Source: an uncultured Oscillospiraceae bacterium (GTDB lineage Bacteria > Bacillota > Clostridia > UMGS1883). Taken from it: DNA of 43,522 bases. The stretch spans positions 1 through 43,522 of the forward strand of contig CAZYYT010000002.1 in the NCBI GenBank assembly GCA_964651775.1, in the 5' to 3' direction. Shown piece by piece: positions 16,761 to 35,903 of this stretch (its first letter is position 1; the number at the start of each line of letters is the position of its first letter). The position numbers were made by a program, and so were the translations under genes. Below the pieces are notes generated by a model. It saw nothing but the letters and a program-made list of their open reading frames with translations, was not told the DNA's origin and did no database searches.

Positions 16761-17591
16761 TTAAATAATTAAATTAATTAAAAAGCATAGCAAAATTCCA
16801 ATACAAGTCGGCAAAAGAAACGAAATCATTGTCCAAAACATACTCCCCGTTTCTTTTTTTATGGTAAGCAAAGTTGTTGAGCAAGGCCAATGCATAAGGA
16901 AAAACACAATCGTGCAAAGTGCAGTTGATAACCTCCACCCGTTTTGAACAAAAATTTCTCTCATTTGAATAAGGCTTCCCGTTTCTATCAAAGTGCCTTG
17001 CGCGGTATATGCCATTATCATTATGGGAATTACAATTTCATTTGCGGGAAATCCAAGTATAAACGCGGTTAAAATTATCCCATCGAGGCCGATTGCCCTT
17101 GCAAACGGGTCAAGAAATTGACTTATATGCAAAAGTAGACTAACTCCACCAATTTGAGCATTTGCCAAAATCCATAAAATAAGTCCTGCAGGTGCAGCAA
17201 CCTTTATAGCGCGAATAAGTACAAAAAATGTTCTGTCATAGAGAGAGCGTATAATTACCCTCATAATCTGAGGCCGTCTGTATGGCGGAAGCTCTAAAAC
17301 AAATGACGATGGCTCCCCCTTTAAAACAGTCTCTGACAAAACCTTTGTACTAATAAAAGTCATACCTATACCAAAAAGTATAACCCCCGTCAGTATTACA
17401 GCACTTTTTACCGAGCTTAGTATACCGCCTACACCTGCAAAAAACATTGTTATAATCGCAAGCAATGCCGGGAATCTTCCGTTGCAAGGGACAAAGTTGT
17501 TTGTAATTATTGCAAGCAGCCTCTCCCTTGGAGAGTCTATTATTCTGCACCCTATAACCCCTGCCGCATTACATCCAAAGCCCATGCACAT
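16761..17591 (-). pseudogene. feoB: feoB 3-prime fragment (C-terminal permease part of an interrupted ferrous iron transporter B)
   Basis: Begins MCMGFGCNAAGVIGCRIIDSPRERL, which matches the internal FeoB MGFGCN region, then continues as polytopic membrane sequence. It has no G-domain. It joins in phase with 34599-35900. Confidence 0.85.
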
Positions 17592-17594
17592 GGT
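17587..17594. repeat. left junction core (attL/attR crossover region)
   Basis: CACATGGT is identical to 34603-34610 and sits exactly at the feoB break point. Confidence 0.8.
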
Positions 17595-17635
17595 AGGTTA
17601 TTTAGTTGTGTAAAAAGTGGAAAAACGAAAACGCA

Positions 17636-19276
17636 CTAACCCCTTGGTTTTGGTTCCTCAATAATAATTTCATTTGGCTCACAATTAAACTTAAAGTAAA
17701 TATCAATTCTTTGATGCTTTGTCTTCTCAGCATACTCACCCTGATGCACATCTATTCTATCAATAAGCTTAAAGATGATTTCACTATCCAAATAGCTTAA
17801 CTTCTCATAATCTGCAATAAGCTTCTTAAACACGGCGTGCCTTTTGGTCAGCGCCTTTGTATCAGCCTTTATGGAGATAGCCTTTTCTTTCTCAGCGATA
17901 ACGCTTTCCAAACTCTCTTTTTCAAGTTCATATTTTGCCCTTAAGTTCTCAAAGGTTTTATCGTCAATATCTCCCGAAAAACTTTTGTCATACACCATCT
18001 CAAGCTTGTTTGATATGCCCGAAAGCTTTCTTTTAGCATCGTCAAGCTTCGATATGTAAGCATCCCCGCTTTGAAGCATCTCATTAAGTAAGCGTTCCCT
18101 TTCCTCCTCGGTAAAGCTTATCTGCTGACGTAGGGCTTCTAAAACAATATTGTATAAAACATCATAGTCTATAAAGTGGGAAGTGCAAGCAGTTGGTCCA
18201 AGCTGCTTGTAGCCGCCACAATTTAGATTTGCCTTTGCACCCTTTTTATTTGTGCCAACGGTTGACATATTTCGTTTGCAGTCGCTACATTTGGCAACCC
18301 CGGAAAATAGATTAGCAAAGCCCTTTTCCCTTACTTTGGTTCGGCTTTGCATCTTTTTTCTGACAATATCCCAAGTATCGCTTTCAATCAGCGCTTCGTG
18401 TGTATTTTCCACACGAATCCATTCGTCCTTTGGAATGTTTTCTATATGCTTTGATTTAAAGCTGGGCTTGTGGGTTTTACCTTGCAGGGTATGGCCCAAG
18501 TAAACCTCATTTCGAAGTAGCTTACTCACCGTACCCGTTTGCCACTTGTCAGATGTTTCATAGTTTTCCTCATCTAAATGAATGTTAACTTTAAAACGAT
18601 ACTTTGACGGAGTAATAATACCATCATCATTTAGCTGCTTTGCAATCTGATTTGGTGAGTACCCCTCTTTTGCAAGGAAGAATATCCTTATAACCACTTG
18701 TGAGGACTCTACGTCAGGCAGAAGATGATTTTTATTCTTGGGGTCTTTTCGGTAGCCATATGGGGCAAATGCACCGACAAACTCACCTTCTCTCATTTTT
18801 GCGGCAAAAGAGGAATTTATCTTCCTTGAAATATCCCCTGCATAAAGCTCATTGGTGAAGCTAAGCATCGGCGCAAGTATCTCGGAAGCATCACTTGCCG
18901 TGGTGTCAATGCCCTCTGTAATGGATATGTACCTAACACCGTTTTCTACAAAGAAATCATCAAGCATCATCATTACCTGGCCCGTGTTTCTCCCTAGACG
19001 GGAAAAGTCCTTGGTAAGAACTACTCCAATCTTTCCTTGGACAATATCCTGCTTCATTCTTAAAAACGAAGGTCTGTCAAAATTGGTGCCGGTATAGCCA
19101 TCGTCAATATATTCGTCATAAACGAAAAGCCCATTGTCTTTCGCATAGTTTATTAAAATTTTTCGCTGATTATCTATAGATGCACTCTCACTTGACTCAC
19201 CATCTTCTCGTGACAGACGCATATATAAAGCGGCATAAAACCTGACCGCTTTATTATGTGTTAAGCTCGCATTCAC
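17636..19276 (-). CDS. large serine recombinase (resolvase/invertase N-domain, recombinase domain, zinc ribbon, coiled coil)
   Basis: 546 aa. Catalytic region YMRLSREDGESSESASIDNQRKIL, recombinase-domain sequence and Cys cluster CSDC...CGGYKQLGPTACTSH. GTG start with GGGGG upstream. Confidence 0.9.
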   Translation of the reverse strand: MNASLTHNKAVRFYAALYMRLSREDGESSESASIDNQRKILINYAKDNGLFVYDEYIDDGYTGTNFDRPSFLRMKQDIVQGKIGVVLTKDFSRLGRNTGQVMMMLDDFFVENGVRYISITEGIDTTASDASEILAPMLSFTNELYAGDISRKINSSFAAKMREGEFVGAFAPYGYRKDPKNKNHLLPDVESSQVVIRIFFLAKEGYSPNQIAKQLNDDGIITPSKYRFKVNIHLDEENYETSDKWQTGTVSKLLRNEVYLGHTLQGKTHKPSFKSKHIENIPKDEWIRVENTHEALIESDTWDIVRKKMQSRTKVREKGFANLFSGVAKCSDCKRNMSTVGTNKKGAKANLNCGGYKQLGPTACTSHFIDYDVLYNIVLEALRQQISFTEEERERLLNEMLQSGDAYISKLDDAKRKLSGISNKLEMVYDKSFSGDIDDKTFENLRAKYELEKESLESVIAEKEKAISIKADTKALTKRHAVFKKLIADYEKLSYLDSEIIFKLIDRIDVHQGEYAEKTKHQRIDIYFKFNCEPNEIIIEEPKPRG

Positions 19277-19308
19277 AAAAGCCCCCTTTCCGCCCCCTTA
19301 ACTTACTT

Positions 19309-19428
19309 TCAAGCATTTCGTGACTTACTTAATAAAATTTCTTTAATTATTTCTTTTATATCTCGTTTACATGTTGAATGTATCTTTATATCATAGACTT
19401 CTTTGGTTTGTTTTTTTGCATTTGTCAT
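19309..19428 (-). CDS. small basic ORF (39 aa) immediately upstream of and co-oriented with the recombinase; function unknown
   Basis: My own translation: MTNAKKQTKEVYDIKIHSTCKRDIKEIIKEILLSKSRNA. GGGAGTG lies 5 nt upstream of the ATG. The stop is 32 nt before the recombinase start. It is below the ORF-track length cutoff. Confidence 0.3.
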   Translation of the reverse strand: MTNAKKQTKEVYDIKIHSTCKRDIKEIIKEILLSKSRNA

Positions 19429-19708
19429 ATAATCACTCCCTTACCCCCAAAATTTAGTGCCCAAAATCGGTTTTGTGTGCTAAATTTGTTGTTATATAAG
19501 CCTATGCGTAAGGATTATATTTCTTGCTTGTCCAACCAACTAATTCATGATTTTTTAAATAGCAAAAGCTTTTTAAAAGAAGCCCACCCTATATAAAAAG
19601 GTGACGTTTAACTTAAAAATATATAGATTGTAATTTCAAAATAAAGTGATATAATTGAAGAAAAGAAATATTAAGTGCTTCTTAAATAACAAAAAGGATG
19701 TTTGAATA

Positions 19709-20059
19709 ATGAAAAATATAAAATTTTATGTGTGCCCCAAATGTGGAAATATTCTGCAAGGCACAGGCGAATTTGAGGTTTCGTGCTGTGGCAATCAGCT
19801 TCCTGCACTTGTACCAAAAACAGATACAACAAACCACGAGATTGATTCTAAAATAGTTGAAGATGATTTTTATATTACCTTTAATCACGAAATGACTAAG
19901 TCACACTACATCGGTTTTGCAGCATATGTTGGATTTGACAGGGTGCTTACTGTTAGACTGTATCCCGAGCAAGAAGCGGTTGTGCGTTTTCCAAGAATGA
20001 GTAGAGGAAAACTCTATTTATACTGCAATCAGCATGGATTAATTGAGTATAAATTATAA
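19709..20059 (+). CDS. desulfoferrodoxin-family protein (class I superoxide reductase-like)
   Basis: 116 aa. N-terminal desulforedoxin-type CPKC...CC motif. NHE..., NHEMTKSHYI and YCNQHGL match the His/Cys ligand pattern of SOR centre II. Confidence 0.65.
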   Translation: MKNIKFYVCPKCGNILQGTGEFEVSCCGNQLPALVPKTDTTNHEIDSKIVEDDFYITFNHEMTKSHYIGFAAYVGFDRVLTVRLYPEQEAVVRFPRMSRGKLYLYCNQHGLIEYKL

Positions 20060-20080
20060 GACCAGCTTCGGGGTGTGTAT

Positions 20081-20881
20081 ATGAAAACAGTTGTAATTAC
20101 CGGAAGTACGAGGGGGTTTGGGCGCGAGCTTTCAAGATGCTTTCGAAAGAAAAACTATAATGTGGTTATAAGTGGCACAAATGCCGAAAGATTAGAAAAA
20201 GCGTTAGCGGAGCTTTCATGTATTTCTTCCAAAGGTGAAATACATGCCTGTGTTTGTGATGTTAGAAAACAAAATGATGTTGAAAATCTGTATCTAACAT
20301 CAGAGAAAATATTTGGAAAGGTTGATATCTGGATAAACAACGCAGGCGTCAATCAGCGTGATGTGGCAATTATGGATTTAGAAAGTCAAGAGATTGACAC
20401 CCTCCTTGATATAGACTTAAAGGGCACCATTTACGGAAGCAAGGTTGCCTTTAAGCATATGCACAAACAAGGCAGTGGCCAAATATATAATGTTGAAGGC
20501 CATGGCTCAAACGATGCAATCATTATGGGGTTGTCACTTTATGGTACATCAAAAAGGGCTGTAACCTATTTTACCGAGGCGCTTAGTAAAGAGGCGGATT
20601 TACTTAACTCAAAAGTGTGCATCGGTAAAATATCACCCGGAATTATGAATACCAACTTTTTGACTACTGCAAACAGTGAAAGTGGCGCAATTACACTAAA
20701 CGAAAAAACCAAAAAGGTATATAATACCCTTGGTGATTACCCGCAAACCGTGGCAGAATTTATGGCCGATAAAATTGATAAAAACACAAAAAACAACGTC
20801 AAATTTAATTGGTTAACGGGCAGAAAAGCATTAACAAGATTTATGAGCGCAGGCTTTAGAAAAAGAGAGTTTTTTTCGTAA
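20081..20881 (+). CDS. SDR family oxidoreductase
   Basis: TGSTRGFG cofactor motif, NNAG and YGTSK catalytic motif. Start set at MKTVVITG. Confidence 0.85.
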   Translation: MKTVVITGSTRGFGRELSRCFRKKNYNVVISGTNAERLEKALAELSCISSKGEIHACVCDVRKQNDVENLYLTSEKIFGKVDIWINNAGVNQRDVAIMDLESQEIDTLLDIDLKGTIYGSKVAFKHMHKQGSGQIYNVEGHGSNDAIIMGLSLYGTSKRAVTYFTEALSKEADLLNSKVCIGKISPGIMNTNFLTTANSESGAITLNEKTKKVYNTLGDYPQTVAEFMADKIDKNTKNNVKFNWLTGRKALTRFMSAGFRKREFFS

Positions 20882-20996
20882 ACAGACTGCTTAAATAGCC
20901 TTAATCTAAAACTCAACCAAGCGTTTGTCCCCACCAAACGGTTGGTGTGTTTACTTTTGGCACAGGTAATCTATAATGGTATTAAGGAGGCGGAGG

Positions 20997-21602
20997 ATGA
21001 ATCAAGAAAAAATCGGCAAATTTATTGCTGAACGCAGAAAATATAAAAACATGACGCAGGCAAGCTTGGCTGAAAAGCTAAATATAACTGATAGGGCCGT
21101 ATCAAAATGGGAAAGAGGAAAAGGGATGCCTGACTCATCCATTATGCTTAACCTTTGCAGTGAGCTTGGTATTAGCGTAAACGAATTATTAAGTGGGGAG
21201 GTTATTGAAGTGGAAAATTACGATAAAAAATCAGAAGTTCTTTTGCTTGAAATGGCAAAGAAAGAAGAACAACATAACAAAAGACTTATGACTGCAATGT
21301 GGACGATTATGGCAGTAAGCATAGTAGCGCTTTTATCTGTTAACTTTCTAGTAGTATTTTTGGTTCCCGAAGGGCCACTACAGCTTCTATTTGTTATAGG
21401 GGCGGTAATTTTATTTATGATCCCTTGTTTTATAGCTTTAAAGCTTGAAACAGAAGCCGGTTTTTATGAATGCAAAAACTGTCACCATAAATTTGTTCCA
21501 GCTTATAAAGACGTTTTGTGGGCTATGCATATGGGAACAACAAGGCATTTAAAATGCCCCCATTGTCAGAAGAAAGCCTGGTGTAAAAAAGTATTAAAAT
21601 AA
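20997..21602 (+). CDS. membrane-anchored XRE-family HTH regulator with C-terminal zinc ribbon
   Basis: HTH_3-like MTQASLAEKLNITDRAVSKWERG, two hydrophobic segments, then CKNCHH...CPHCQ. Start at MNQEKIG after AAGGAGGCGGAGG. Confidence 0.78.
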   Translation: MNQEKIGKFIAERRKYKNMTQASLAEKLNITDRAVSKWERGKGMPDSSIMLNLCSELGISVNELLSGEVIEVENYDKKSEVLLLEMAKKEEQHNKRLMTAMWTIMAVSIVALLSVNFLVVFLVPEGPLQLLFVIGAVILFMIPCFIALKLETEAGFYECKNCHHKFVPAYKDVLWAMHMGTTRHLKCPHCQKKAWCKKVLK

Positions 21603-21605
21603 CTA

Positions 21606-21636
21606 TTGACTCTCCCCTTAGAGTATGCCTTAAAAT
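21606..21636 (+). promoter_or_regulatory. MerR-type promoter with 19-nt spacer and internal dyad
   Basis: TTGACT (21606-21611), 19-nt spacer containing ACTCTccccttAGAGT, TAAAAT (21631-21636). It lies directly upstream of the MerR-family gene. Confidence 0.5.
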
Positions 21637-21656
21637 CTTTTTGGGAGGTGGAAATT

Positions 21657-22457
21657 ATGTTTTCTATCGGTGAATTTTCAAAGTTGGCAAAGACTACAAT
21701 CAAGACACTACGCTTCTATGATGAAATTGATTTATTTAAGCCAAGCCACACAGAAGATAACGGTTATCGTTATTATTCTATTGATGACTTAAATAAGCTT
21801 ACAATGATTTTAGAGCTTAGGGAAATTGGTCTGTCAATAAGTGAAATTAAAAATGTACTCCTAGGGTATGACCTTGAAACCACACTTGTAAATAGGTCTG
21901 ATTCACTCAAAAAAGAAATCGAGAAAAGCCATAATGACCTGTCCCTTATAAACAATATTTTAATTCAAATAGAAAAAGGAGAGTCTATTATGGAAAAGTA
22001 TCAAGCATCGGAAATTATAGTTCCTGAAATCAAGGTTTATTACAAGCACGGCGTAATTGAAAATATGTCAAAGCTAGTTGATTTTGTTTTATCTGCAGGC
22101 AGAGAGGTAAGCGAAAACAACCCTACACTTAAGTGTGAGGGTTACTGCTATATAACCTATGAAGCGCCACAGTATCAAGAACAAAATGTGGAGCTTGAGT
22201 ATGTGGAGCAGATAACCGAATTTGGAAAAGAAAGCGAGAACATCAAATTCAAAACAGTGCCCTCCATAAAGGCAATTTCTGTTACACATAAGGGGCCATA
22301 TGATAAGCTTAGTGAGGCGTACCTTTATGCAGTAAACTTTGTAAAAGAAAAAGGATACACAATTTCAGATAAAATTCGTGAGGTTTATATCCACGGATGT
22401 TGGGATAGGGATAGTGAGGATGATTATGAAACTGAAATCCAAGTCCCTGTAAAGTAA
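21657..22457 (+). CDS. MerR family regulator with GyrI-like effector-binding domain (BmrR-like)
   Basis: MFSIGEFSKLAKTTIKTLRFYDEIDLFKP is a MerR HTH. The C-terminal roughly 150 aa are GyrI-like (ends EIQVPVK). GGGAGGTG upstream. Confidence 0.85.
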   Translation: MFSIGEFSKLAKTTIKTLRFYDEIDLFKPSHTEDNGYRYYSIDDLNKLTMILELREIGLSISEIKNVLLGYDLETTLVNRSDSLKKEIEKSHNDLSLINNILIQIEKGESIMEKYQASEIIVPEIKVYYKHGVIENMSKLVDFVLSAGREVSENNPTLKCEGYCYITYEAPQYQEQNVELEYVEQITEFGKESENIKFKTVPSIKAISVTHKGPYDKLSEAYLYAVNFVKEKGYTISDKIREVYIHGCWDRDSEDDYETEIQVPVK

Positions 22458-22469
22458 GGAGAATTTTAA

Positions 22470-23090
22470 GTGGAAAACTATATTATAAGACGCGAAACAC
22501 CGCGGGATTATCAAGAGGTTTTAAATTTGGTGCGTGAGTCATTTTGGAATGTTTACCGCCCCGGTTGTATTGAACATTATGCTCTACACATTATGAGAAG
22601 CTCAAGCGACTTTGTGAAAGAACTGGATTTTGTTATGGAGCTTGACGGTAAAATCATAGGACAAAATGTTTTTACCAAAGCACAAATCAAAGCTGATGAC
22701 GGTAAAATTATCCCTGTACTTACAATGGGGCCAATTTGTATTACTCCACAGCTAAGGGGCAAGGGTTATGGAAAAATATTACTTGATTATTCGTTGGAGA
22801 AAGCAAAAGAGTTAGGCTATGGTGCAGTATGCTTTGAAGGTAATATAGACTTTTACGGGAAAAGTGGCTTTGTTGTGGCAAGCACAATGAACATTCACTA
22901 CTATGGCGAGCCACGGGAAAACGAAGTCCCGTACTTTCTTTGCAAAGAACTGCAAAAAGGTTATCTTAAAGGTATCGAAGGGGTATTTTGCCAACCAATG
23001 GAAGTATATGTTGACGATAATGCGGCGGATGAATTTGATAAGCAGTTTCCTTATAAAGAAAAGCTTAAACTACCGGGACAACTTGTGTAA
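22470..23090 (+). CDS. GNAT family N-acetyltransferase
   Basis: 206 aa. Acetyl-CoA motif region PQLRGKGYGKILLDYSLEKAKELGY. GTG start 8 nt after AAGGAG. Confidence 0.78.
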   Translation: MENYIIRRETPRDYQEVLNLVRESFWNVYRPGCIEHYALHIMRSSSDFVKELDFVMELDGKIIGQNVFTKAQIKADDGKIIPVLTMGPICITPQLRGKGYGKILLDYSLEKAKELGYGAVCFEGNIDFYGKSGFVVASTMNIHYYGEPRENEVPYFLCKELQKGYLKGIEGVFCQPMEVYVDDNAADEFDKQFPYKEKLKLPGQLV

Positions 23091-23281
23091 AATTTAGTAT
23101 ACTTATTTACTTCTTAAGCTATATTAATAATCTAAACAGAAATGAAGATGATACTACGAAAATTTATGACATTTCTCAAGAGGTTTTTTCTTCTGTTGTT
23201 TTTGAGGGGGACCCAAAGCCTGAAGGTAAAGCAATAAAAAGAATTGAAGATGGGGCTTTATATAATCTATCTTCATTTAGT

Positions 23282-23749
23282 ATGTGTGCACATAATGGCA
23301 CCCACGTAGATGCGCCGTTTCACTTTTTAAAGGATGGGGATACTGTTGATAAAATCCCGCTTAAGCATTTTGTTGGAAATGCATATGTAGCATATCATGA
23401 TGGATATGTAAAATTAGAAGATGCTAAATTAATCCTTGAAAAAGCGCGGGCATTTGATGGCGCGGGAAAAAGAATTCTCATCAAAGGAAAAGCAGTGGTT
23501 ACGCTTGAGGCTGCAAAATTTTTTGCAAACTCAAATATACTTCTTTTAGGAAATGAGTCGCAAACGATAGGACCGGAGGACGCACCAATGGCTGTGCATA
23601 AAGCACTACTCTCTAAAAACATTGTTTTACTTGAAGGTATCAGGCTTAAAGACGTTTCTGAAGGTGCATATTTATTAAGCGCTGCCCCACTAAACCTTAA
23701 GAGGTTTGACGGGGCGCCGTGTAGGGCGGTGCTTATAGATACAAATTAA
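23282..23749 (+). CDS. cyclase family protein (arylformamidase-like); conserved N-terminus lies upstream without a start codon
   Basis: HNGTHVDAPFHF motif. The in-frame upstream sequence (from 23156) reads TKIYDISQEVFSSVVFEGDPKPEG, typical of the family N-terminus, but has no ATG/GTG/TTG. Confidence 0.6.
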   Translation: MCAHNGTHVDAPFHFLKDGDTVDKIPLKHFVGNAYVAYHDGYVKLEDAKLILEKARAFDGAGKRILIKGKAVVTLEAAKFFANSNILLLGNESQTIGPEDAPMAVHKALLSKNIVLLEGIRLKDVSEGAYLLSAAPLNLKRFDGAPCRAVLIDTN

Positions 23750-23912
23750 ATGAAGAAACTTACGCTGTATAATCATTGTGGTTAAGAATATATTGTATTA
23801 ACTAGCAACTTAAATATCACCGAGGGTAAGATTTTAAAAGTTAAACCAGCTTTAATTAAAAGAATCTCCTTGATATTTGTGTTAAAAAATTTAATAATAA
23901 GAGGGCGTTATT

Positions 23913-24554
23913 ATGAAAAAGAAAGTAGTTTTAATGACTATAATTTCATGTCTGGTGACTTTAATTCCAATGCTGGTGGGGCTTATACTTTGGGATAAAC
24001 TCCCCGAAGAGATGCCAACCAACTTTGGATTTAACGGCGAAGTTACAGGGTATAGCAGCAAATTTTTTGGAGTTGTTGGACTTCCGTTAATTTTAGTGGC
24101 AAGCAATTTGTTTTGTATTATTTTTACAATGGCAGACCCAAGGAGAAAGAATATCAGTAACACGGTTTTGGGCGTAGTTTTAACAATAATACCCATTAGC
24201 TCAATTTTTAGTTGTGTGCTTTTATACAAAGATGCTTTAGGATTTAACATAAATGTAGGCACACTTTCAACTGCATTTTTGGGTATTATCTTTATAGTAG
24301 TTGGTTTAATCCTTCCAAAATGCAAACAGAATTACACTGTTGGTATCAAGCTTCCTTGGACACTACATAGTGAAAAAAATTGGGATAAAACCCACGCATT
24401 AGGCGGTAAAGTTTGGGTGATCGGCGGTATTATCCTTACTATATTCGGTATGCTTGGTTATGAAAAAATCGTCTTTTGGGGAATATTTGTTTTGGTAGCC
24501 ATTCCAGTGGTGTATTCTTATGTATATTATAGAAAAAACGAACTCAAGAAATAA
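23913..24554 (+). CDS. SdpI/YhfL-like membrane protein (DUF1648 + SdpI family)
   Basis: 213 aa with about 6 TM segments. N-terminal LWDKLPEEMPTNFGFNGEVTGYSSK pattern typical of DUF1648. Confidence 0.7.
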   Translation: MKKKVVLMTIISCLVTLIPMLVGLILWDKLPEEMPTNFGFNGEVTGYSSKFFGVVGLPLILVASNLFCIIFTMADPRRKNISNTVLGVVLTIIPISSIFSCVLLYKDALGFNINVGTLSTAFLGIIFIVVGLILPKCKQNYTVGIKLPWTLHSEKNWDKTHALGGKVWVIGGIILTIFGMLGYEKIVFWGIFVLVAIPVVYSYVYYRKNELKK

Positions 24555-24640
24555 AATTCTTGTACCGTAAATTCACACAAACCAAAACAAGAAAATAGTA
24601 AAATAATGAGTTAAGGCGACAAAATGTTCAGGTTTGAACT

Positions 24641-24683
24641 GAGCTGTGCCAATCTGTGCAAACAGCACAAATTGGTACAGCTC
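24641..24683 (+). terminator. Rho-independent terminator candidate
   Basis: gagctgtgccaat / attggtacagctc stem (one G-U pair), followed by AATTTTTA. Confidence 0.55.
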
Positions 24684-24718
24684 AATTTTTATAGAGGTAC
24701 TTTTTTTATATAAACATA

Positions 24719-24766
24719 TTGACATTTGTTTATATGTTGTATATAATATAATACATAAACGTTTAT
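24719..24766 (+). promoter_or_regulatory. promoter plus palindromic operator candidates for the ArsR-family operon
   Basis: TTGACA (24719-24724), 17 nt, TATAAT (24742-24747). Inverted repeat AACATAT...ATATGTT overlaps the -35/spacer. Perfect 12-bp palindrome ATAAACGTTTAT at 24755-24766. Confidence 0.45.
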
Positions 24767-24784
24767 TTATGTGAGGTGAATATT

Positions 24785-25069: not shown

Positions 25070-25070
25070 G

Positions 25071-27207: not shown

Positions 27208-27236
27208 TTGACAATTTAGTTTATTTGTGTTACCAT
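27208..27236 (+). promoter_or_regulatory. promoter candidate for the purine permease gene
   Basis: TTGACA (27208-27213), 17 nt, TACCAT (27231-27236) with an upstream TGT. Confidence 0.4.
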
Positions 27237-27279
27237 CTTCAAGTAGTTTTATTATATATCAAAGATAAGGGGATGTGTT

Positions 27280-28626
27280 ATGTTTAAATTAAAGGAAAAT
27301 GGTACAACAATTTCAACAGAAATTATCGCAGGCCTTACAACATTTTTCGCTATGTCATACATTATTATTGTAAATCCAAGCATTTTGGCACAGTCTGGAA
27401 TGGAATGGGGCGCAGTATTTCTTGCAACCATCATTTCATCAATCGTAGGAACGTTAGTTATGGGACTTGTAGCTAATGTACCTTACGCACAAGCCCCGGG
27501 CATGGGTCTGAATGCATTTTTTGTTTTTACTGTTTGTTTTACGCTAAAGTTTACATGGCAACAAGCATTATCCATGGTATTTATCTGTGGACTTATTAAT
27601 ATTTTTATCACAGTAACAAAAATTCGTAAGTATATTATCAAATCAATTCCACTAAGCCTTCAAAATGCAATTGGTGGCGGAATAGGTATTTTCGTAGCAT
27701 ACATTGGTTTTTTAAATGTTGGAATCATTAATTTTGGCTCAGGCGTTCCTGCACTTTCAGTGTTAAATCAGCCTGTATTTTGGGTATTTTTAATTGGTTT
27801 GTTAATTACATTTGTCTTGCTTGTTCTTAATGTAAAAGGTGCAATATTAATTTCAATTATTGCAACTACTATTATTGGAATACCTTTTGGTGTTACTCAG
27901 TTACAAGAAACAACAAGCTTTACACAGGCATGCAGCGTTCTACCAACAACATTTTTTGCTATTTTTAAAGAAGGTGGCATTACAAGCTTGTTTACAGACC
28001 TAACCAAGCTTCCTCTTGTTTTATTAACAATTTTTGCGTTTAGTATTTCTGATACGTTTGATACAATCGGAACATTTATAGGAACGGGCCGTCAAACAGG
28101 TATCTTTAGTGAAGAAGATGAGTCACTTATGGAAAGCGGATCCGGCTTTAAGTCAAAGCTTGATAAGGCTCTCTTTGCCGATGCAACAGCGACTTCAATC
28201 GGTGCTTTGTTTGGCACATCAAACACTACCACATTCGTTGAAAGTGCTGCAGGCATTGGCGTAGGTGGTCGTACAGGACTTACATCAGTTGTTGTTTCAA
28301 TTTGCTTTGCATTGTCAGCATTTTTAGCAACATTCGTAAGTGCCGTTCCTTTTGCTGCTACAGCACCTGCTTTAATCGCTGTTGGTATTATGATGACTTC
28401 TTCATTCAAGTGCATTGATTGGAGCGACTTTAATGAAGCTATTCCGGCATTCTTTGCAGGCATATTTATGGCTCTTTGCTACAGCATTTCTTATGGTATT
28501 GCAGCAGGCTTCATATTCTATATAATTACAAAGGTATGTACAGGTAAAATAAAAGAAATTAATCCTGTTTTATGGGTTTGTTCCGGTTTATTTATACTTA
28601 ACTTTGTATTACTTGCAATAATATAA
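27280..28626 (+). CDS. NCS2/AzgA-family purine (adenine/guanine/hypoxanthine) permease
   Basis: 448 aa. N-terminus FKLKENGTTISTEIIAGLTTFFAMSYIIIVNPSIL is typical of PbuG/AzgA-type permeases. Confidence 0.83.
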   Translation: MFKLKENGTTISTEIIAGLTTFFAMSYIIIVNPSILAQSGMEWGAVFLATIISSIVGTLVMGLVANVPYAQAPGMGLNAFFVFTVCFTLKFTWQQALSMVFICGLINIFITVTKIRKYIIKSIPLSLQNAIGGGIGIFVAYIGFLNVGIINFGSGVPALSVLNQPVFWVFLIGLLITFVLLVLNVKGAILISIIATTIIGIPFGVTQLQETTSFTQACSVLPTTFFAIFKEGGITSLFTDLTKLPLVLLTIFAFSISDTFDTIGTFIGTGRQTGIFSEEDESLMESGSGFKSKLDKALFADATATSIGALFGTSNTTTFVESAAGIGVGGRTGLTSVVVSICFALSAFLATFVSAVPFAATAPALIAVGIMMTSSFKCIDWSDFNEAIPAFFAGIFMALCYSISYGIAAGFIFYIITKVCTGKIKEINPVLWVCSGLFILNFVLLAII

Positions 28627-28650
28627 CAAAATTTAAAAAAGCACCTTTGA
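28497..28650 (+). repeat. direct repeat copy 1 (permease 3-prime end plus first terminator arm)
   Basis: 136-nt core 28497-28632 matches 31761-31896 with 3 mismatches. After a diverged 7-8 nt stretch, agcacctttga is shared again. Confidence 0.85.
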
Positions 28651-28904
28651 AACTGAACCGACCCCCAAAAGTTAGACCAAAAATCTTACGATTGGGAGGC
28701 CGGTTTTTACATGGCAAAAAAATAGCTTTGGATAATCTTGCTAAGGGTAAACTTGTCGAAGCAAGTGAGTTGAATCTCAATGTGACAAATGCCGCCAAAG
28801 TGAAATATATACTTTAAAACGACGATAATAAAACGCTTTATCCAATTACAGCAAGTACTGTAAAATAAAACAAATTTGTTAATTAAAAATTTTCGCAGCT
28901 TGTG

Positions 28905-29690
28905 CTATTGTTTGCTCACATACTTTGATGGAGCCTTGCCAATATACTGCTTAAATATACGACTGAAATAATAGATTGAATCAAATCCAAGTTCAGAAGA
29001 GATTTCTCCAATAGAGCGGTCTGTCTCTCGTAACAGGAGGCAGGCCCTTTGTATTCTCAGACTGTTGCGGTAATAGATGGGTGTTTTGCCGGTTTCTTTT
29101 TTAAAAAGCCGATAAAGATGTGTTTCGCTTAAAAAACATAATTCTGCCAGCTCCAATGCGGATATATCTTCGGTATAATGGTTGTTGATATAATCGATTG
29201 CGGGCATAATGCGATTTTCGGAGGTTGATTTAAGAAGCTGATAAAGCTCTGCCAGCATATCGTAAAAAAGAGCCATTGCATGGAAGCTGGCATCAGGGAT
29301 AGAAAGAATGTCGGATAGTTTTTTTGCGTCTTTCATAAATATAGTGCCGACTTTGTCAGCAATAGGCAAGGGGAGTCGTGAAAATAATATGGGCTCCATA
29401 TCATTCATATCTGTAATAGTAAAGCTTATACGAAAAAAGGAGAAGCTTTCGGTTGAGACTGTCAGATGATGCTTGGAGTGCAGCGGAAGATATATAAGTG
29501 TGTGTGGACCAAACTCGAAACTGCCACCCTCCCAATTATATCTGCCTATGCCCTTATCAATCAGTAAAAAACCATTAACATTTCGGTTTTCTACAGTCAT
29601 ATTCCTGTAGGACGGAGTTTGATATATAGCGGTAAGTCCATGCAGTGCGAAATCAGTTTTGTGCAAATCCTGAAATTTAATAATTTTCAT
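28905..29690 (-). CDS. AraC family transcriptional regulator
   Basis: C-terminal dual HTH (ELAELCFLSETHLYRLFKKETGKTP...IGEISSELGFDSIYYFSRIFKQYIGKAPS) and an N-terminal cupin-like sensor. Start set at MKIIKFQ. Confidence 0.83.
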   Translation of the reverse strand: MKIIKFQDLHKTDFALHGLTAIYQTPSYRNMTVENRNVNGFLLIDKGIGRYNWEGGSFEFGPHTLIYLPLHSKHHLTVSTESFSFFRISFTITDMNDMEPILFSRLPLPIADKVGTIFMKDAKKLSDILSIPDASFHAMALFYDMLAELYQLLKSTSENRIMPAIDYINNHYTEDISALELAELCFLSETHLYRLFKKETGKTPIYYRNSLRIQRACLLLRETDRSIGEISSELGFDSIYYFSRIFKQYIGKAPSKYVSKQ

Positions 29691-29858
29691 ATGTAATTCA
29701 TCTCCTGCATTTATATAGGAAATTAACTGCAACTATATTATACGATTTTTTGGAACAAACGTCAAGTACATGTTAGAATAGTTTAAATATCTGTTGTTTT
29801 TATGTATTTGCTTTTAACTTATCTGATAGTATAATTTGAGAAAAGGAGGATGTGATTT

Positions 29859-30044
29859 ATGAAGGTCTATTACAAAGTTGGTGGTGGCTGTGTATTGTGT
29901 CTGGGATGTGTATATGAATGTCCTGTCGGTGCAATTTCTGTAAAAGAGAATATTTCGGCAATTATAGACAAGGAACGCTGTTTGGGTTGTGGCAAGTGCT
30001 GTGACAGCTGTCAGGCTGAGGCAATAATCAAAGTAGAAGAATAA
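29859..30044 (+). CDS. 4Fe-4S dicluster ferredoxin
   Basis: 61 aa with two Cys clusters, CVLCLGCVYECP and CLGCGKCCDSC. AAAGGAGG upstream. Confidence 0.8.
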   Translation: MKVYYKVGGGCVLCLGCVYECPVGAISVKENISAIIDKERCLGCGKCCDSCQAEAIIKVEE

Positions 30045-30057
30045 TAGGAGGATAAAT

Positions 30058-31563
30058 ATGATTACTTTAAATCGGGAAGCAAATTCGATTATCAGAGAAG
30101 ATGAACTAATTCCAATATACGGAGACTATGATGTTGTAGTTGTAGGAGGAGGGATGGCAGGCGTTGGTGCAGCTCTGGCAGCGTCAAAAGCCGGTGCAAA
30201 AACCATCTTGATTGAAAACACTTCAGGACTTGGTGGTATTGCGTCCTTTGGCTTGGTGCCGATTCCTCTGGACTTTGTTTCCGGTCTCGGACAGGAATTT
30301 TTTGACGAAATGAAAAAGGTAGACGGAATCAGAAAGAGAAACACCGATCCGGAAAAGCATAAGCTGATATTTGACCGTATGATGAAAAAGTACGGAGCGG
30401 AAACCTTGCTTGTTACACCTTTGATAGATACTATTGTTGAAGGTAACGCGGTAAAGGGAATTGTTATTCACACCAAGCAGGGCAAAAAAGCAATAATGGG
30501 TAAGCGCTTTGTAGATGCTTCCGGTGATTCTGATTTGGTATTTTTTGCCGGAGGAGAAACACAGTCAGGACGTCCAGAAGATGGCATATCCATGGGCTGC
30601 TCATTGGATTTTGTTATGGGCGGTGTGGATTTTGATAAGTATCTGGAGAGTGATATTAGAAATAATGACCCCAAGTGGATAAAGACAATTTCCGATGCGT
30701 TAAAAAGCGGAGAATTGCCCTACGAGATAGACAATCATGTAAACTGGATTACGCATATTCCGGGACGTCCGGAGAATTGCGGTATGGATGAGGTTTGTAT
30801 TTGCATAGCGCATTCTAGGAGCTGCTATCCAACCGATAATAATGATTTAACCCGTATGTATATTGAGGGACGTGAACAGGCGGCAATCATGACAGATTTT
30901 ATCCGCAATCATATACCGGGCTTTGAAAAAGCGTATCTTAGCTATACGGGCAGTTTGTTAGGTGTAAGAGAGAGTCGCCGTATTGTTGGAGAGTATGCAT
31001 TTACCGGTATGGACATTGCTTATGCAAGGAAACAGGAGGATGTTATTGCAATAAGCCAGCACGGTTTTGATTTGCACGGAGGCAATCTTAAATGGTTTAA
31101 AGGACAACTGCCGGATGGCAGAGAGGCTTATATAGCCAACCGCGCCGGATGGGGAACGCAACTTCCGCCGGATGATGATTTGCCAAGGATAAATATGGCG
31201 GAGCTTGCGCCTGATGGAGAATTCTGGTATGACATTCCATACAGATCCTTGATTCCGATTAGACTGGAAAACGTTTTGGCAGCAGGAAGAAACATTTCAT
31301 CTGATGTGCCCGGACAGTCCGGCACAAGACTGGTTATGTGCTGTATGGCTCTTGGAGAAGCGGCAGGTACAGCAGCTGCACTTTCTATTAAGGATAACCT
31401 GTCTCCGCGCAAATTGGATGTAACGAGGCTACAAAGAACACTGGCTGAGAACAATGTAAACATCGGTCAGAGATTCAGAGAGATAGCTGCGTTTAAGGGC
31501 TATAAGACAAGTGAAAATACATTTGATGTCACTTTCAAAGGATCTAGTCAAGGCAATGGCTGA
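30058..31563 (+). CDS. FAD-dependent oxidoreductase (PF12831-like)
   Basis: DVVVVGGGMAGVGAALAASKAGAKTILIE dinucleotide-binding motif. 501 aa. Translationally close to the ferredoxin gene. Confidence 0.8.
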   Translation: MITLNREANSIIREDELIPIYGDYDVVVVGGGMAGVGAALAASKAGAKTILIENTSGLGGIASFGLVPIPLDFVSGLGQEFFDEMKKVDGIRKRNTDPEKHKLIFDRMMKKYGAETLLVTPLIDTIVEGNAVKGIVIHTKQGKKAIMGKRFVDASGDSDLVFFAGGETQSGRPEDGISMGCSLDFVMGGVDFDKYLESDIRNNDPKWIKTISDALKSGELPYEIDNHVNWITHIPGRPENCGMDEVCICIAHSRSCYPTDNNDLTRMYIEGREQAAIMTDFIRNHIPGFEKAYLSYTGSLLGVRESRRIVGEYAFTGMDIAYARKQEDVIAISQHGFDLHGGNLKWFKGQLPDGREAYIANRAGWGTQLPPDDDLPRINMAELAPDGEFWYDIPYRSLIPIRLENVLAAGRNISSDVPGQSGTRLVMCCMALGEAAGTAAALSIKDNLSPRKLDVTRLQRTLAENNVNIGQRFREIAAFKGYKTSENTFDVTFKGSSQGNG

Positions 31564-31654
31564 TATGAGAAAATTGTGTTATAATACCATGGCATATAAA
31601 GTATCGAAAAAGTGGTTGTAGCAAAATAGCAGCTAAAATAAGTTTCGAAAAGAA

Positions 31655-31692
31655 AAAAGCGGACGATTGCAGTAGCAAAAGTTCGCTTTTTT
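31655..31692 (+). terminator. weak terminator candidate after the oxidoreductase gene
   Basis: aaaagcggac / gttcgctttt stem (one G-U pair) followed by TT. Confidence 0.35.
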
Positions 31693-31760
31693 AGTTATAA
31701 TCGAATTGACATAAAACCATTAAACCAAGGAGATTATACCACAAGGCATATGCTTGTTGA

Positions 31761-31890
31761 TATTGCAGCAGGTTTCATATTCTATATAATTACAAAGGTA
31801 TGTACAGGTAAAATAAAAGAAATTAATCCTGTTTTATGGGTTTGTTCCGGTTTATTTATACTTAACTTTGTATTACTTGCATTGATATAA
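31761..31890 (+). pseudogene. orphan 3-prime remnant of an NCS2 purine permease gene (last ~42 codons)
   Basis: Reads IAAGFIFYIITKVCTGKIKEINPVLWVCSGLFILNFVLLALI*, against ...LLAII* at the end of 27280-28626. No credible upstream coding sequence or RBS. Confidence 0.8.
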
Positions 31891-31915
31891 CAAAATAAAA
31901 ACCAAGCACCTTTGA
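31761..31915 (+). repeat. direct repeat copy 2 (orphan permease 3-prime end plus intact terminator start)
   Basis: See copy 1. The offset between copies is exactly 3264 nt. Confidence 0.85.
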
Positions 31916-31931
31916 GAAATCAAAGGTGCTT
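31904..31931. terminator. bidirectional Rho-independent terminator
   Basis: aagcacctttga / tcaaaggtgctt 12-bp perfect stem with a GAAA loop and T-runs on both strands. It lies between the permease remnant and the convergent MATE gene. Confidence 0.72.
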
Positions 31932-31970
31932 TTCTTATGCAAAATTATATTTACCAAAGCTAATTTAACC

Positions 31971-33338
31971 TTAATTGTCAGTTAGTTCTTGACTCTCCTC
32001 GGATTTACCCATGCTCTTTTTTAAAATCACCACAAGAAACAAAATGCCAAGTGCGAGTGTGATTGTATCTGATATAGGCTGTGCCCAAATAAGGCCCTCA
32101 AATCCTGACAGCTTCTTCATTAAGAATAAAAGTGGAATATAGAAAAGTCCTTGTCTAGCGGTGGATAGTACAAGTGCTTCTTTTGCTTTGCCAAAGGCTT
32201 GAATACCGGTAGTCGCAAGCATCTGTGGACCTAATACAATAAAGCTGAAAATACTTATGCGAAAAACTAACTTGCCGGCATCTATAACGTCGGGAAGCTT
32301 TGTGAAGATGCCCACAAAATTTGGCGCAAGCACCCAAAAAATTGCCATTAGCAAAACGCCTATTGAAAATGTCATAATCATACCGGTTTTAAATACGGAG
32401 CGCACCCTCTTATAATTACCGGCTCCGTAGTTGTATCCAATCAGCGGTTGACAACCCGCAGCAAATCCCATAAACACAAAAGTGCCAATAAACATCATCT
32501 TAGATGAGATGCCCATTCCTGCTTTTAATACATCGTTATCACCGACTAAATTATTAAGAATAATCATAGCAACACTAAGTAAAAATTGGCTAATACATGC
32601 AGGCACACCAATGGTGAAAATTTCCTTCCAAATGGTAGAATTTCTGCTGATGAAGTTTAATTTTATCTTTAAAAGTGCTTTACCCGATAGATAGTAGTAA
32701 GCATAGTAGACAAGCGCCCCCAAATTACCTAATACAGTAGCAAGCGCCGCACCACCAATACCCATATCAAATGTAAAGATAAAAAGTGGGTCTAATACGA
32801 CATTAATAACTGTTCCAATCAGCATACCGGTAATCGATGGCATCATCGCACCTTCTGCACGAAGAAGTTGACCGCCTGCATAGTTTAGCATAACGGGGAT
32901 AGATCCCAAAAGCATTATAGAAACATAGTTGTACGCATAAGGGTAAACATCTGATGATGCACCAAGCCCTGTAATAAGGGGCTTAATAACTGCCATACCC
33001 GCTATCATCACAATAATTGCAAGTATTGTACATATCATAACGCCTGTTGTAAGTGTGCGGTTTGCACTATCACTGTCTTTTCTGCCTATACATCGTGAAA
33101 TATATGATGCCGCACCAGTTGAAACGATGGTGGCTATGGCCATTTGTATCATAAAAACCGGTGTGGTAATACTTGCAGCAGCAAGCTGGTTTTTGTCTTG
33201 CAGCATACCGATGAAGAAGGTGTCTACCAAATTATAAAGCACTTGCACCATCATTCCGCATACAACGGGAATTGATAGTTTAAGTATTGCTTTAATGATT
33301 GGTGCCTTTCCCATCAGCTCAATTTGTTTATTTTCCAT
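31971..33338 (-). CDS. MATE family efflux transporter
   Basis: 455 aa, 12-TM pattern. N-terminus LKLSIPVVCGMMVQVLYNLVDTFFIG is typical of MatE. Confidence 0.85.
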   Translation of the reverse strand: MENKQIELMGKAPIIKAILKLSIPVVCGMMVQVLYNLVDTFFIGMLQDKNQLAAASITTPVFMIQMAIATIVSTGAASYISRCIGRKDSDSANRTLTTGVMICTILAIIVMIAGMAVIKPLITGLGASSDVYPYAYNYVSIMLLGSIPVMLNYAGGQLLRAEGAMMPSITGMLIGTVINVVLDPLFIFTFDMGIGGAALATVLGNLGALVYYAYYYLSGKALLKIKLNFISRNSTIWKEIFTIGVPACISQFLLSVAMIILNNLVGDNDVLKAGMGISSKMMFIGTFVFMGFAAGCQPLIGYNYGAGNYKRVRSVFKTGMIMTFSIGVLLMAIFWVLAPNFVGIFTKLPDVIDAGKLVFRISIFSFIVLGPQMLATTGIQAFGKAKEALVLSTARQGLFYIPLLFLMKKLSGFEGLIWAQPISDTITLALGILFLVVILKKSMGKSEESQELTDN

Positions 33339-33547
33339 TTACGCTTATACCTCCATATGTTTTGTAAAAACATCACAATTGTTGAAAAGTCAACAGTGAG
33401 AATTATAACATTTTTAATATAAGGTGTCAAGCAAATTAGTATTATGTATATTTACATTCAATTGAATATTTATAATATATAAAGAAAAAACATGAATATA
33501 ATATAGATAAGATGACATTAATATATAAAATTATAGGAGGGAAAAAA

Positions 33548-34417
33548 ATGAAAGAGAAGCTCAAGGGTTTGGTTATTGGCTTGGCAATAGGCTTAACTAT
33601 TACTACAACAGCGGTTTTAGCATCTAACGGGTCAGTCCTAAAGGAACTGAAGTACAATAACATTAAAATTAGTCTTAATAATAAAACAATTACACCTAAA
33701 GATGCAAACGGCAAATATGTAGAGCCATTTACCATAGATGGTACAACATATCTACCTGTTAGGGCCGTAGCAGACGCGGTTGGCGTAAATGTAGACTGGG
33801 ATGATCGCACAAATACTGTTGTTTTATCAAATAAAAAGGTACAAAATAATACTACTGATTTTGATAGTACCAATGTCAAAAACGGTATTAAAGTTGTAAA
33901 AGAATATACATGGAAAACAGACTACTCCAGTTATGTTGCTATAGTTGTGAGAAACGAATCCCCGTGGTCTGTTGCTCCAAGCGTACAGATTTCATACAAA
34001 GACAAAAATGGCACCGTAGTTGGCACTGATAACAAAACCGAAAATCCCTTTGGTCCGGGAAGTGAAATGGCAATTGTTTTCAGCAGTAAAGAGGATTTTG
34101 AAACAGCTGATTACATTTTATCTGCCAGCGAAGAGAAAGATTTTAGTGAGTGTATTTCAATGCTGGAAACTAAAGTAACTACAACGCCGGAAAAAGCTAT
34201 AATTCAAGTTACAAATAATGGTGATGATTTAGCCTATTTTGTAAAATATACAGTATTATTTAAAAATGGAGACAATGTTGTTGGTTATGGTACGGGATAT
34301 TTCGACGAATACGATTCCGGAATCAAACCAGGCTCGACAACAATCAGCGAAAAACAAGTATTCGGGAAAAAGTATGACTCTGTTGAGGTATATCTCACAG
34401 GAAGATCAGGGAAATAG
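33548..34417 (+). CDS. membrane-anchored or secreted protein with copper amine oxidase N-terminal-like domain
   Basis: MKEKLKGLVIGLAIGLTITTTAVLA signal/anchor. GKYVEPFTIDGTTYLPVRAVADAVGVNVDWDDRTNTVVL matches the Cu_amine_oxidN1 stalk motif. The C-terminal roughly 200 aa are unassigned. Confidence 0.68.
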   Translation: MKEKLKGLVIGLAIGLTITTTAVLASNGSVLKELKYNNIKISLNNKTITPKDANGKYVEPFTIDGTTYLPVRAVADAVGVNVDWDDRTNTVVLSNKKVQNNTTDFDSTNVKNGIKVVKEYTWKTDYSSYVAIVVRNESPWSVAPSVQISYKDKNGTVVGTDNKTENPFGPGSEMAIVFSSKEDFETADYILSASEEKDFSECISMLETKVTTTPEKAIIQVTNNGDDLAYFVKYTVLFKNGDNVVGYGTGYFDEYDSGIKPGSTTISEKQVFGKKYDSVEVYLTGRSGK

Positions 34418-34434
34418 ATTGTTTTATAAAAGTA

Positions 34435-34493
34435 GCAGTGGCTGATATGTACCTCCAAAAGCATCTAACTTTTGGGTTCACTTCAGCCACTGC
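34435..34493 (+). terminator. long-loop hairpin terminator candidate
   Basis: gcagtggctga / tcagccactgc 11-bp stem enclosing an inner ccaaaag/cttttgg stem, followed by CTTTTTCC. Confidence 0.45.
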
Positions 34494-34598
34494 TGCCTTT
34501 TTCCTTTATAATAAATAAATCTTGTCCAAAACCTTATTGGTAGGATGTGAAGATAAGCTTACTATGTACTTGTGGCGCTTGGCACACATATAAGTAAA

Positions 34599-35900
34599 TT
34601 ACCACATGGTTAGGGCTTGCTTTCCGCAGGCGTTACATTTTTTGAAGGGCTTATCAAGATTATATGCGATGCGGGGTAAATAGCCCGAGTCCTCCAAAAG
34701 AGTGAAAAGCGGGAAAAATATAGCCATTGGTGGAAGCATAACCGAAACAACCCACCCTAAAACGCGGTACATTCCCGATATAAGTGCACCTGATAGCCAC
34801 TCTGGGGCGCTTAAAAATTCAAAAATAGCGTAAAGCTTAATCTCAATATAATTAAATGCTTTACTAAGTAACTGCGAAGGGTAGTTTGCACCCTCAAGCG
34901 TTATCCAAAAAGTTAATAGTAAAAGTAAGACCATCAGCGGATATCCAAAGGCTTTGCTTGTAAGAATTCGGTCAATTTTTCTGTCACGCCCGTTATACAT
35001 GCCTTTATTTTCAGTCACAACAGATATAGATATGGCTTCAGCAGTGATTACTGTTGATATAGCTATATCATCTTTAATTTTGTTTTTATCGTATCCCTTT
35101 TGGTTAAGCACGGAAATTGCATTTTCAACCGATAGCCTAAGTGCTTCATCTTCAAATGGGTTATTCCCTAAAAAGCTTTCTATTTCATTTTTTAGTGATT
35201 CATTAATATCAAGCAGCTTTATACTAAGCCACCTTGCATCAAGTCTTTCCCCTGCCACTTTTTTTGCATAAGGGATTATAGACTCTATTGCTTCTTCTAT
35301 ATCATCACTATATTTTACTTTATAGCACACAGCATCAGATTCTGTTACACAGTCCACTGCATCCATAAGCGAGTCAAGGCTTTTTTTCTTATGCGCAATT
35401 GTGCATACAACACGTGCCCCCAGCTTTTTTTCTAAAAGCTTTGTATTAACCCTTATCCCCTTACGCTTTGCCTCATCCATCAAATTCAGGCATATAACAG
35501 CGCGCTTATTTGTTTCAAGCGTTTGTAAAACAAGATTTAAGTTCCTTTCAAGGCAGGTGGCATCGCATACAATAACTACTGCATCACAAGTACCGAAGCA
35601 GATGAAATTTCTTGCTATTTCCTCCTCGACAGAATGCGCCATTAGTGAATATGTACCGGGGATATCCACAAGCACATAGGAATTTCTATGTGTGGTGGTG
35701 TACCCCTGCGCATTAGCAACCGTTTTTCCGGGCCAATTACCCGTATGCTGATTCATCCCCGTAAGAGCGTTAAAAACTGTGCTTTTTCCAACGTTTGGAT
35801 TACCCGCTAGCGCAATAACCTTATCGTTTGGAGTTTGCTTTTTTATAACAAGGGCAGCGTCTCTAACACTTGCCCCCGTTGAGCTTTTGGTAAGCCCCAT
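34599..35900 (-). pseudogene. feoB 5-prime fragment (G-domain, helical domain and first TM segments of an interrupted gene)
   Basis: G1 GNPNVGKST, G3 DIPGTYSL and G4 NLMD. Ends ...CGKQALTMW*, with only the last codon and the stop contributed by element DNA. Confidence 0.85.
34603..34610. repeat. right junction core (attR/attL crossover region)
   Basis: CACATGGT is identical to 17587-17594 and sits exactly at the feoB break point. Confidence 0.8.
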
Positions 35901-35903
35901 AAA

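Follow-up and report, generated by a model that had tools for sequence, protein, structure and literature searches.

Several kinds of element that carry a large serine recombinase (LSR) interrupt coding genes. In skin (sigK, recombinase SpoIVCA) and SP-beta (spsM, SprA), the element splits a gene whose open reading frame (ORF) is rebuilt by precise excision; the genes concerned are needed only in the terminal mother cell, and the elements are excised when the recombinase or a directionality factor is expressed specifically in sporulation. The standard example of active lysogeny, the Listeria comK prophage (phi10403S/A118), is likewise integrated by an LSR within a coding gene, which reversible excision restores. 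Tn5397 (recombinase TndX) and Tn4451/Tn4453 (TnpX) are flanked by a short direct repeat containing the crossover, whose dinucleotide is GA in Tn5397 and Tn4451. The integrative mobilizable elements (IMEs) of Firmicutes that use serine recombinases disrupt, for example, rumA, or genes of integrative conjugative elements such as Maff2 and SNF2, and site-specific elements with serine recombinases typically insert into genes that are dispensable, which they disrupt (PMC5704250). LSRs of the DUF4368/TndX-like type are described as mostly multi-targeting (preprint 10.1101/2021.11.05.467528). Here we analyzed a 43,522-nt stretch of DNA from an uncultured Oscillospiraceae bacterium (hereafter the window; contig CAZYYT010000002.1 of assembly GCA_964651775.1), in which the iron transporter gene feoB is split by an insert that carries an LSR gene. 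We think it likely that this insert is a site-specific integrative island, and that its own TndX/TnpX-type LSR placed 17,016 bp in feoB, which served as the attB.

The two parts of feoB lie on the minus strand, on either side of the insert and behind an intact feoA, as the initial annotation had proposed; both the ORFs and their Pfam domains agree with this arrangement (Table 1). The N-terminal fragment ends in ...GKQALTMW*, with the final residue and the stop codon coming from the element. The C-terminal fragment begins MCMGFGCNAAG, with its ATG within the junction core; reading the sequence by eye, we saw no Shine-Dalgarno motif upstream of that ATG. Joining positions 34611-35900 to 16761-17594 in silico, which removes a unit of 17,016 bp (the 17,008 nt between the cores plus one core), produced a single ORF of 707 aa with the frame kept. 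This is the normal size for FeoB, and the product contains FeoB_N, FeoB_Cyto, two Gate domains and FeoB_C. Searched against 5.8 billion proteins, the rejoined FeoB covered 99-100% of the full-length FeoBs, with a best identity of 71%, and nearly all of the top 120 matches were 705-715 aa long (one was 751 aa). The initial annotation had named colinearity across the break as a decisive check, and a multiple alignment of the rejoined protein with full-length homologs was gap-free at ...ALTM-CMGFGC... (hyphen at the junction), which falls within one of the most conserved stretches of FeoB, ...CGKQ(A/S)LTM-CMGFGCNAAG.... On paper, then, precise excision at the 8-bp repeat would rebuild a colinear feoB of normal length behind feoA. 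As the sequence reads, the integrated element inactivates this copy of feoB, and the cell can make FeoA plus a 433-aa truncated FeoB.

The 8-nt repeat, CACATGGT, lies exactly at the two break points, and these are its only two copies on the + strand of the window, where ~0.53 copies per strand are expected. After excision, the repaired attB junction would read ...GCAAGCCCTAACCATGTGCATGGGCTTTGG... and the junction of the circular form, attP, ...AACTAAATAACCTACCATGTGGTAATTTACTTA.... We then compared the locus with the contigs that encode the two closest full-length FeoBs (L083, GCA_045649225.1, and L084, GCA_045591265.1). Both share the gene order of the right flank of the window, namely a MurJ/SpoVB-like gene, MazG, HU, FeoA and FeoB, and in both feoB runs uninterrupted through the exact position of the insertion. 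In a blastn alignment to L084, window positions 34603-43489 and 16773-17595 met at 9298/9290, with a 9-bp overlap and ~71% identity. Relatives that lack the element are thus continuous at the break point, as predicted for a site-specific insertion. The initial annotation had held that a different sequence here in such relatives would imply a rearrangement, and its proposal passed this check too.

Table 1. Coordinates of the split feoB locus, its junctions and the inserted element within the window.
Feature	Position	Strand	Remarks
Junction core CACATGGT, feoB-C side	17587..17594		predicted crossover dinucleotide CA at 17589-17590
Junction core CACATGGT, feoB-N side	34603..34610		predicted crossover dinucleotide CA at 34605-34606 (TG in feoB sense)
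Left element-side att half-site	17595..17616		one arm of the reconstructed attP
Right element-side att half-site	34581..34602		other arm of the reconstructed attP
feoB C-terminal fragment	16761..17591	-	276 aa; remaining permease, FeoB_C, second Gate domain
Large serine recombinase	17636..19276	-	546 aa; TndX/TnpX-like, intact
Cargo region	19378..34417	mostly +	~15 kb, miscellaneous; Pfam scans
feoB N-terminal fragment	34599..35900	-	433 aa; G-domain, cytosolic helical domain, first part of the permease
feoA	35904..36179	-	intact; directly upstream of the feoB N-terminal fragment; Pfam FeoA, E=8.8e-19

The LSR gene had been expected to end about 40 nt inside the left junction, and its stop codon lies 41 nt from the core. 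The protein has Resolvase, Recombinase, Zn_ribbon_recom and DUF4368 domains, all four above the Pfam gathering cut-off, and an alignment of 23 family members showed that it keeps every invariant residue, including R20, S22, D25, R68 and R93. Its best match in the PDB was 2mhc, the catalytic domain of TnpX from Tn4451 (E=9e-22), and genes annotated tndX matched it at 38.5% identity across 95% of its length. The window LSR thus shares the recombinase architecture of Tn5397 and Tn4451/Tn4453, including the C-terminal DUF4368.

Relatives of this LSR were found at the same codons of feoB in many genomes. All flanked loci whose LSR was at least 38% identical to that of the window adjoined a feoB split at these codons, except for one copy elsewhere, making 19 feoB-associated loci, including the window, versus one secondary site. 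In the 18 others (L001-L011, L085, L087, L165-167, L169 and L170) feoB is broken at query residues ~423-435; none of ~220 fetched loci with more distant LSRs had a feoB close by. Two homologs located by exact-sequence look-up, P0128 (about 61-62% identity, L001) and P0124 (68%, L002), both lie beside truncated feoB fragments. Scanning one genome per species yielded 80 LSR loci, of which the nine most similar (39-55% identity, L003-L011) all adjoin a broken feoB, with the break at query residues 427-435, and none of the other 71 lies beside a feoB fragment. A metagenome scan added two loci at feoB (L085 and L087) and one cut by the contig end (L086), the other 77 not being at feoB. A further LSR, P0176 (47% identity), was indexed in 579 blocks of the assembly collection and adjoined a 281-aa C-terminal FeoB fragment in four of the five places shown. 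In the viral collection, no LSR exceeded 41% identity and only one adjoined feoB; its LSR is 38% identical and lies beside a feoB C-terminal fragment on IMG/VR contig L170 (UViG 3300029305_008637). The hosts include Ruminococcus, Lachnospiraceae, Oscillospiraceae, Lientehia hominis and Lacrimispora sp. HJ-01, the last represented by a complete chromosome (L009). Judging from these flanking sequences, we conclude that this position in feoB is the shared landing site of a whole LSR clade in Clostridia. We found no report of feoB as a serine-recombinase target in the literature searched, and we regard feoB as the clade-wide landing site of a widespread group of LSR elements in this class.

The breadth of the family also bears on whether the split could be an assembly artefact, that is, a chimeric contig in which foreign DNA was misplaced inside feoB. 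Contigs built from metagenomes can be chimeric, and exact-sequence look-ups of the feoB N-terminal fragment and of the LSR, including its 100%-identical cluster representative P0121, returned no record and hence no second assembly for comparison. Against this stand the identical 8-bp repeat at the two junctions, the preserved reading frame, and the same-codon architecture in at least 18 independent assemblies, the complete Lacrimispora sp. HJ-01 chromosome among them. We therefore regard an artefact as very improbable.

The members of the family span islets of 3.5 kb, conjugative elements and one putative prophage. The LSR gene takes four different positions and orientations relative to feoB across L001-L011. 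Where both junctions are visible, the elements measure ~3.5, 3.6, 3.85, 6.2, 8.0, 8.3 and 17.0 kb, and the cargo is different in each member, including two MgtC genes, a sortase, an Na/Ala symporter, teichoic-acid-type enzymes, an Ada/Ogt/AlkA repair set with a dehydratase, and a creatininase with amidohydrolases. Near the P0176 gene, three loci encode a TraG/VirD4-type coupling protein and a tyrosine integrase (L165, 1-326; L166, 872-2113; L168, 1-326), and because of this type IV coupling protein the P0176 elements look conjugative. Contig L170 encodes, within positions 1-12500, a DNA ligase, a PD-(D/E)XK nuclease, a Pol III alpha subunit and a RecD2-like helicase, and it may be a phage or a replicative element that uses the same attB.

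We next considered where within the core the LSR would act. With the element ends joined, the reconstructed attP reads ...AACCTACCA-TG-TGGTAATT..., with a dyad match at 16/22 arm positions around the TG. In the feoB sense, the sequence is ...CACAACTAAATAACCTACCA-TG-TGGTAATTTACTTATATGTGTG... and the inner dyad, TACCA-TG-TGGTA, is near-perfect; overall, the attP arms are nearly symmetric. A TG center also scores best in the reconstructed attP of L002 (13/22), L007 (14/22) and L008 (18/22). The host attB, at the feoB codons ...LTMCMGFGC..., contains the palindrome CATG-TG-CATG, and its best dyad center is the next TG, two bases further along. In L001 and L010, feoB reads ACC ACA TG(C/T) at this position, giving Thr for Met and CA where the other loci have TG. 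A second line of evidence comes from P0176, which lies beside feoB in L165-167 and L169 and beside unrelated sequence in L168. These copies are identical through ...TATCCATG and then diverge at once, into GGAATGAGC... in L168 versus TGCATGGGC... in the feoB copies; at the secondary, non-feoB site (L168, 11629-11780), homology stops right after ...CCATG. Because of the dyad center of attP and this secondary-site comparison, we place the staggered cut and crossover most likely at the TG, which is CA on the + strand (Table 1). The predicted TG differs from the GA of Tn5397 and Tn4451. We found no further att-like core (CACATGG or CCATGTG) inside the element, and on this basis rejected the possibility that it is a tandem or accreted element. 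Integration would have proceeded by recombination, catalyzed by the LSR, between the dyad attP of the element and the host attB in highly conserved feoB codons. Excision by this LSR could release the element as a circle, with feoB restored exactly.

The P0176 loci also indicate that these elements move, as identical LSR copies at two different sites are direct evidence of recent movement. Pairwise LSR and FeoB identities were not correlated (Spearman 0.12 for both halves, p ~0.5), a comparison of low power because divergences are saturated, with identities of 40-68%. In some pairs, LSR identity exceeded that of the host FeoBs (for example, 68% versus 53% for the window and L002, and 62% versus 47% for the window and L001). 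These patterns, within the limited power of the comparison, give no sign of vertical residence in a host lineage and point, if weakly given the saturation, to horizontal spread of the LSRs.

The cargo of the window's element is mostly encoded on the + strand, the exceptions being the genes for an AraC regulator (28905-29732) and a MatE efflux protein (31971-33338), and the GC skew of the cargo region is flipped relative to the flanks. It encodes regulators (HTH, MerR-GyrI, ArsR and AraC), transporters (an ArsP-type permease, a xanthine/uracil permease and the MatE protein), and an assortment of other proteins: SDR, GNAT, a cyclase remnant, SdpI-like, thioredoxin-like, cupin, ferredoxin, an FAD oxidoreductase and a protein with a Cu_amine_oxidN1 domain. 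Pfam scans of the element's ORFs revealed no capsid, tail, terminase or lysis genes, and we rejected a prophage identity on gene content, the cargo being metabolic, regulatory and transport genes only.

Three further observations concern individual cargo genes. A 144-nt direct repeat, 96% identical between its copies at 28494-28637 and 31758-31901, brackets a 3.3-kb cassette of AraC, ferredoxin and FAD-oxidoreductase genes; its first copy coincides with the 3' end of the gene for the xanthine/uracil permease, which suggests insertion or duplication of the cassette within the cargo. The 155-aa ORF at 23282-23749 matches only positions 24-62 of the 142-position Pfam Cyclase model; probably the remnant of a gene, it points to decay of the cargo. 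The 116-aa ORF at 19709-20059 had no Pfam match; its N-terminal CxxC...CC and C-terminal ...YCNQHGL..., noticed by eye, are reminiscent of desulfoferrodoxin/superoxide reductase.

Several findings weigh against the reading of the insert as a site-specific integrative island. For this particular element, we saw neither a circular form nor an empty site nor a second copy, and exact-match searches of the metagenome collection with its attB, attP, attL and attR gave 0 hits; a degenerate 33-nt pattern that fits the attL and attR of the window, and by construction attB and attP, likewise had no match in metagenome contigs. Relaxase, type IV secretion system and Mob domains were absent from all ORFs of 17595-34602 in Pfam scans. 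The gene remnant and the internal 144-nt duplication hint at age or decay of the cargo. Cp36, a DUF4368 LSR tested in human cells, showed no attL x attR recombination (preprint 10.1101/2021.11.05.467528), so that the excision competence of the window LSR cannot be assumed. Finally, only 43.5 kb of the genome is visible for judging whether the host has Feo to spare.

Some of these points would fit an immobilized remnant, in which the element integrated once, then lost excision and transfer, and left feoB as a fresh pseudogene heading for decay. Such a remnant would account for an island without transfer genes and for the damaged cargo, and LSRs of the Cp36 type can be unidirectional. Decay of a split feoB does happen: in L007 (8773-9619), only ~43 residues of the C-terminal fragment remain before a hybrid histidine kinase gene, so that excision could no longer restore feoB there. 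In the window, by comparison, the LSR ORF is full length with all invariant residues, the cores are identical, the attP arms retain their dyad, and the feoB halves are intact, with a joined product that aligns without a gap to its nearest full-length homologs. Both halves also lack stops and frameshifts in every related locus that shows them, L007 excepted, a state that fits either recent insertion or continued selection through excision. We consider the remnant reading unlikely, and an ability of the site-specific island to excise is plausible. How a host would tolerate the insertion is suggested by L002, where a second, intact feoAB (3730-6049) lies 2 kb upstream of the split one and encodes a FeoB 24% identical to the joined FeoB of the window. 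This suggests Feo redundancy in at least one host, and insertion would be tolerated through such redundancy.

These features also bear on how the element should be classified. By its gene content, it is neither a prophage nor self-transmissible, and an island without transfer genes would need to move passively or through helper mobilization. Its recombinase and its flanking short direct repeat with the predicted crossover resemble those of the Tn5397 and Tn4451/Tn4453 lineage, but it lacks both the conjugation genes of Tn5397 and the Mob/oriT module of Tn4451. As in the serine-recombinase IMEs, a single LSR has disrupted a conserved coding target between very short direct repeats, and related LSRs share one target across species; here, however, the target is feoB, and without a relaxase or mobilization gene the element is not an IME by definition. 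SCC cassettes integrate at the 3' end of rlmH through Ccr-type recombinases and do not destroy the gene. Like SCCmec-type cassettes, the element is an island of recombinase plus cargo without its own transfer machinery, and its relatives occupy one conserved chromosomal site with size and cargo varying by host; unlike them, it cuts feoB in the middle of the permease domain and uses a TndX-like LSR. Since it has the recombinase, att sites and relatedness of the Tn5397/Tn4451 lineage but not a transfer module, we suggest LSR-only cargo island of that lineage as its most fitting name, with a loose likeness to SCC-type cassettes. The feoB clade is almost single-target, which is mildly unexpected for DUF4368/TndX-like LSRs, otherwise mostly multi-targeting.

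The initial annotation had likened the locus to skin/SpoIVCA-type intervening elements and active-lysogeny prophages, and the likeness holds in part: an LSR element splits a gene, and excision would rebuild the ORF. It does not extend to phage genes, of which the element has none, to the LSR, which is of the TndX/TnpX type, or to the family, which is horizontally mobile. In contrast to skin and SP-beta, the target is a general iron transporter gene and we found no regulatory link. In contrast to the element of the window, the Listeria comK prophage is complete; in the feoB-targeting family, just the distant L170 looks phage-like. FeoB is a general ferrous-iron transporter, neither sporulation-specific nor confined to a terminally differentiated cell, which argues against membership of the skin type.

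The same annotation had gone on to suggest that iron uptake through Feo could be switched by recombinase-mediated excision. In such a scheme, modeled on skin in sigK, SP-beta in spsM and the comK prophage of Listeria, a signal such as iron limitation would make the element excise and re-integrate, or excise in part of the population only, and so toggle Feo uptake. The precision with which feoB can be reconstituted, the absence of stops and frameshifts from its halves here and in visible related loci other than L007, and the intact LSR and att sites all speak for a switch. The LSR gene of L002 follows the feoB N-terminal fragment on the same strand after ~230 nt, and read-through from the feoAB promoter is conceivable there. 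In the window, however, the LSR gene is 15 kb from that promoter, behind genes on the opposite strand. Scanning the window for Fur boxes (TGATAATNATTATCA, <=3 mismatches) gave 6 matches versus 6.3 expected, none near feoA or the LSR, and sigma-70 promoter and terminator scans at both junctions and upstream of the LSR stayed at background level. The minimal elements of the family share no conserved small ORF that could be a candidate directionality factor. This lack would fit a TnpX-like, factor-independent enzyme, as the recombinase of Tn4451 is reported to carry out both integration and excision without a directionality factor (PMC5704250). The horizontal mobility of the family, with its arbitrary cargo and variable gene layout, also speaks against a switch, as do the deletion of most of the C-terminal fragment in the L007 host, the second feoAB in the L002 host, the identical P0176 at a non-feoB site, and a target gene that falls outside the terminal-cell logic that defines skin-type elements. 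With neither Fur-box enrichment nor any other iron-related signal, the regulated iron switch is unsupported, and we judge it improbable.

A broader version of this idea would make the feoB-targeting LSR elements of gut Clostridia population-level toggles of Feo uptake of iron (or manganese). Excision at low frequency, or induced by a signal, would give part of the population a restored feoB, amounting to recombinase-driven phase variation of a core nutrient transporter, and the clade would have specialized on feoB, despite its multi-targeting DUF4368 relatives, because the coupling benefits both host and element. We give this version little credence as well. What does seem plausible is that occasional excision could restore feoB.

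Two features of the flanks stand apart from the element. Between the stop codon of feoB and ksgA, the window contains ~13 kb (3531-16760) that encode a 1259-aa GDSL/aBig protein, a Liv-type ABC transporter, a GH116 glycosidase and a WYL regulator, with no recombinase visible; in L083 and L084, ksgA directly follows feoB. This region may be a second, older insertion or lineage-specific content. On the other side, a hairpin with a perfect 20-bp stem followed by a T-run (36222-36269) lies between hup, which encodes HU, and feoA, ~40 nt from the start of feoA, and may be the terminator of hup, an operator, or both. A search of the window for Rfam RNA families found none.

The feoB of the window is thus best understood as an occupied integration site and not as a random pseudogene, with the 17 kb between its halves being foreign cargo. 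More generally, a conserved motif of the FeoB permease is a recurrent integration hotspot for a clade of TndX-like LSRs in gut and rumen Clostridia, and a split feoB in such a genome should be taken for an element insertion. Strains may, as a consequence, differ in Feo-dependent iron uptake with element carriage. The family is also a natural set of diverged LSRs, each with its matched attP/attB pair, on one conserved target, which is useful for studying the origin of target specificity in a group otherwise regarded as multi-targeting.

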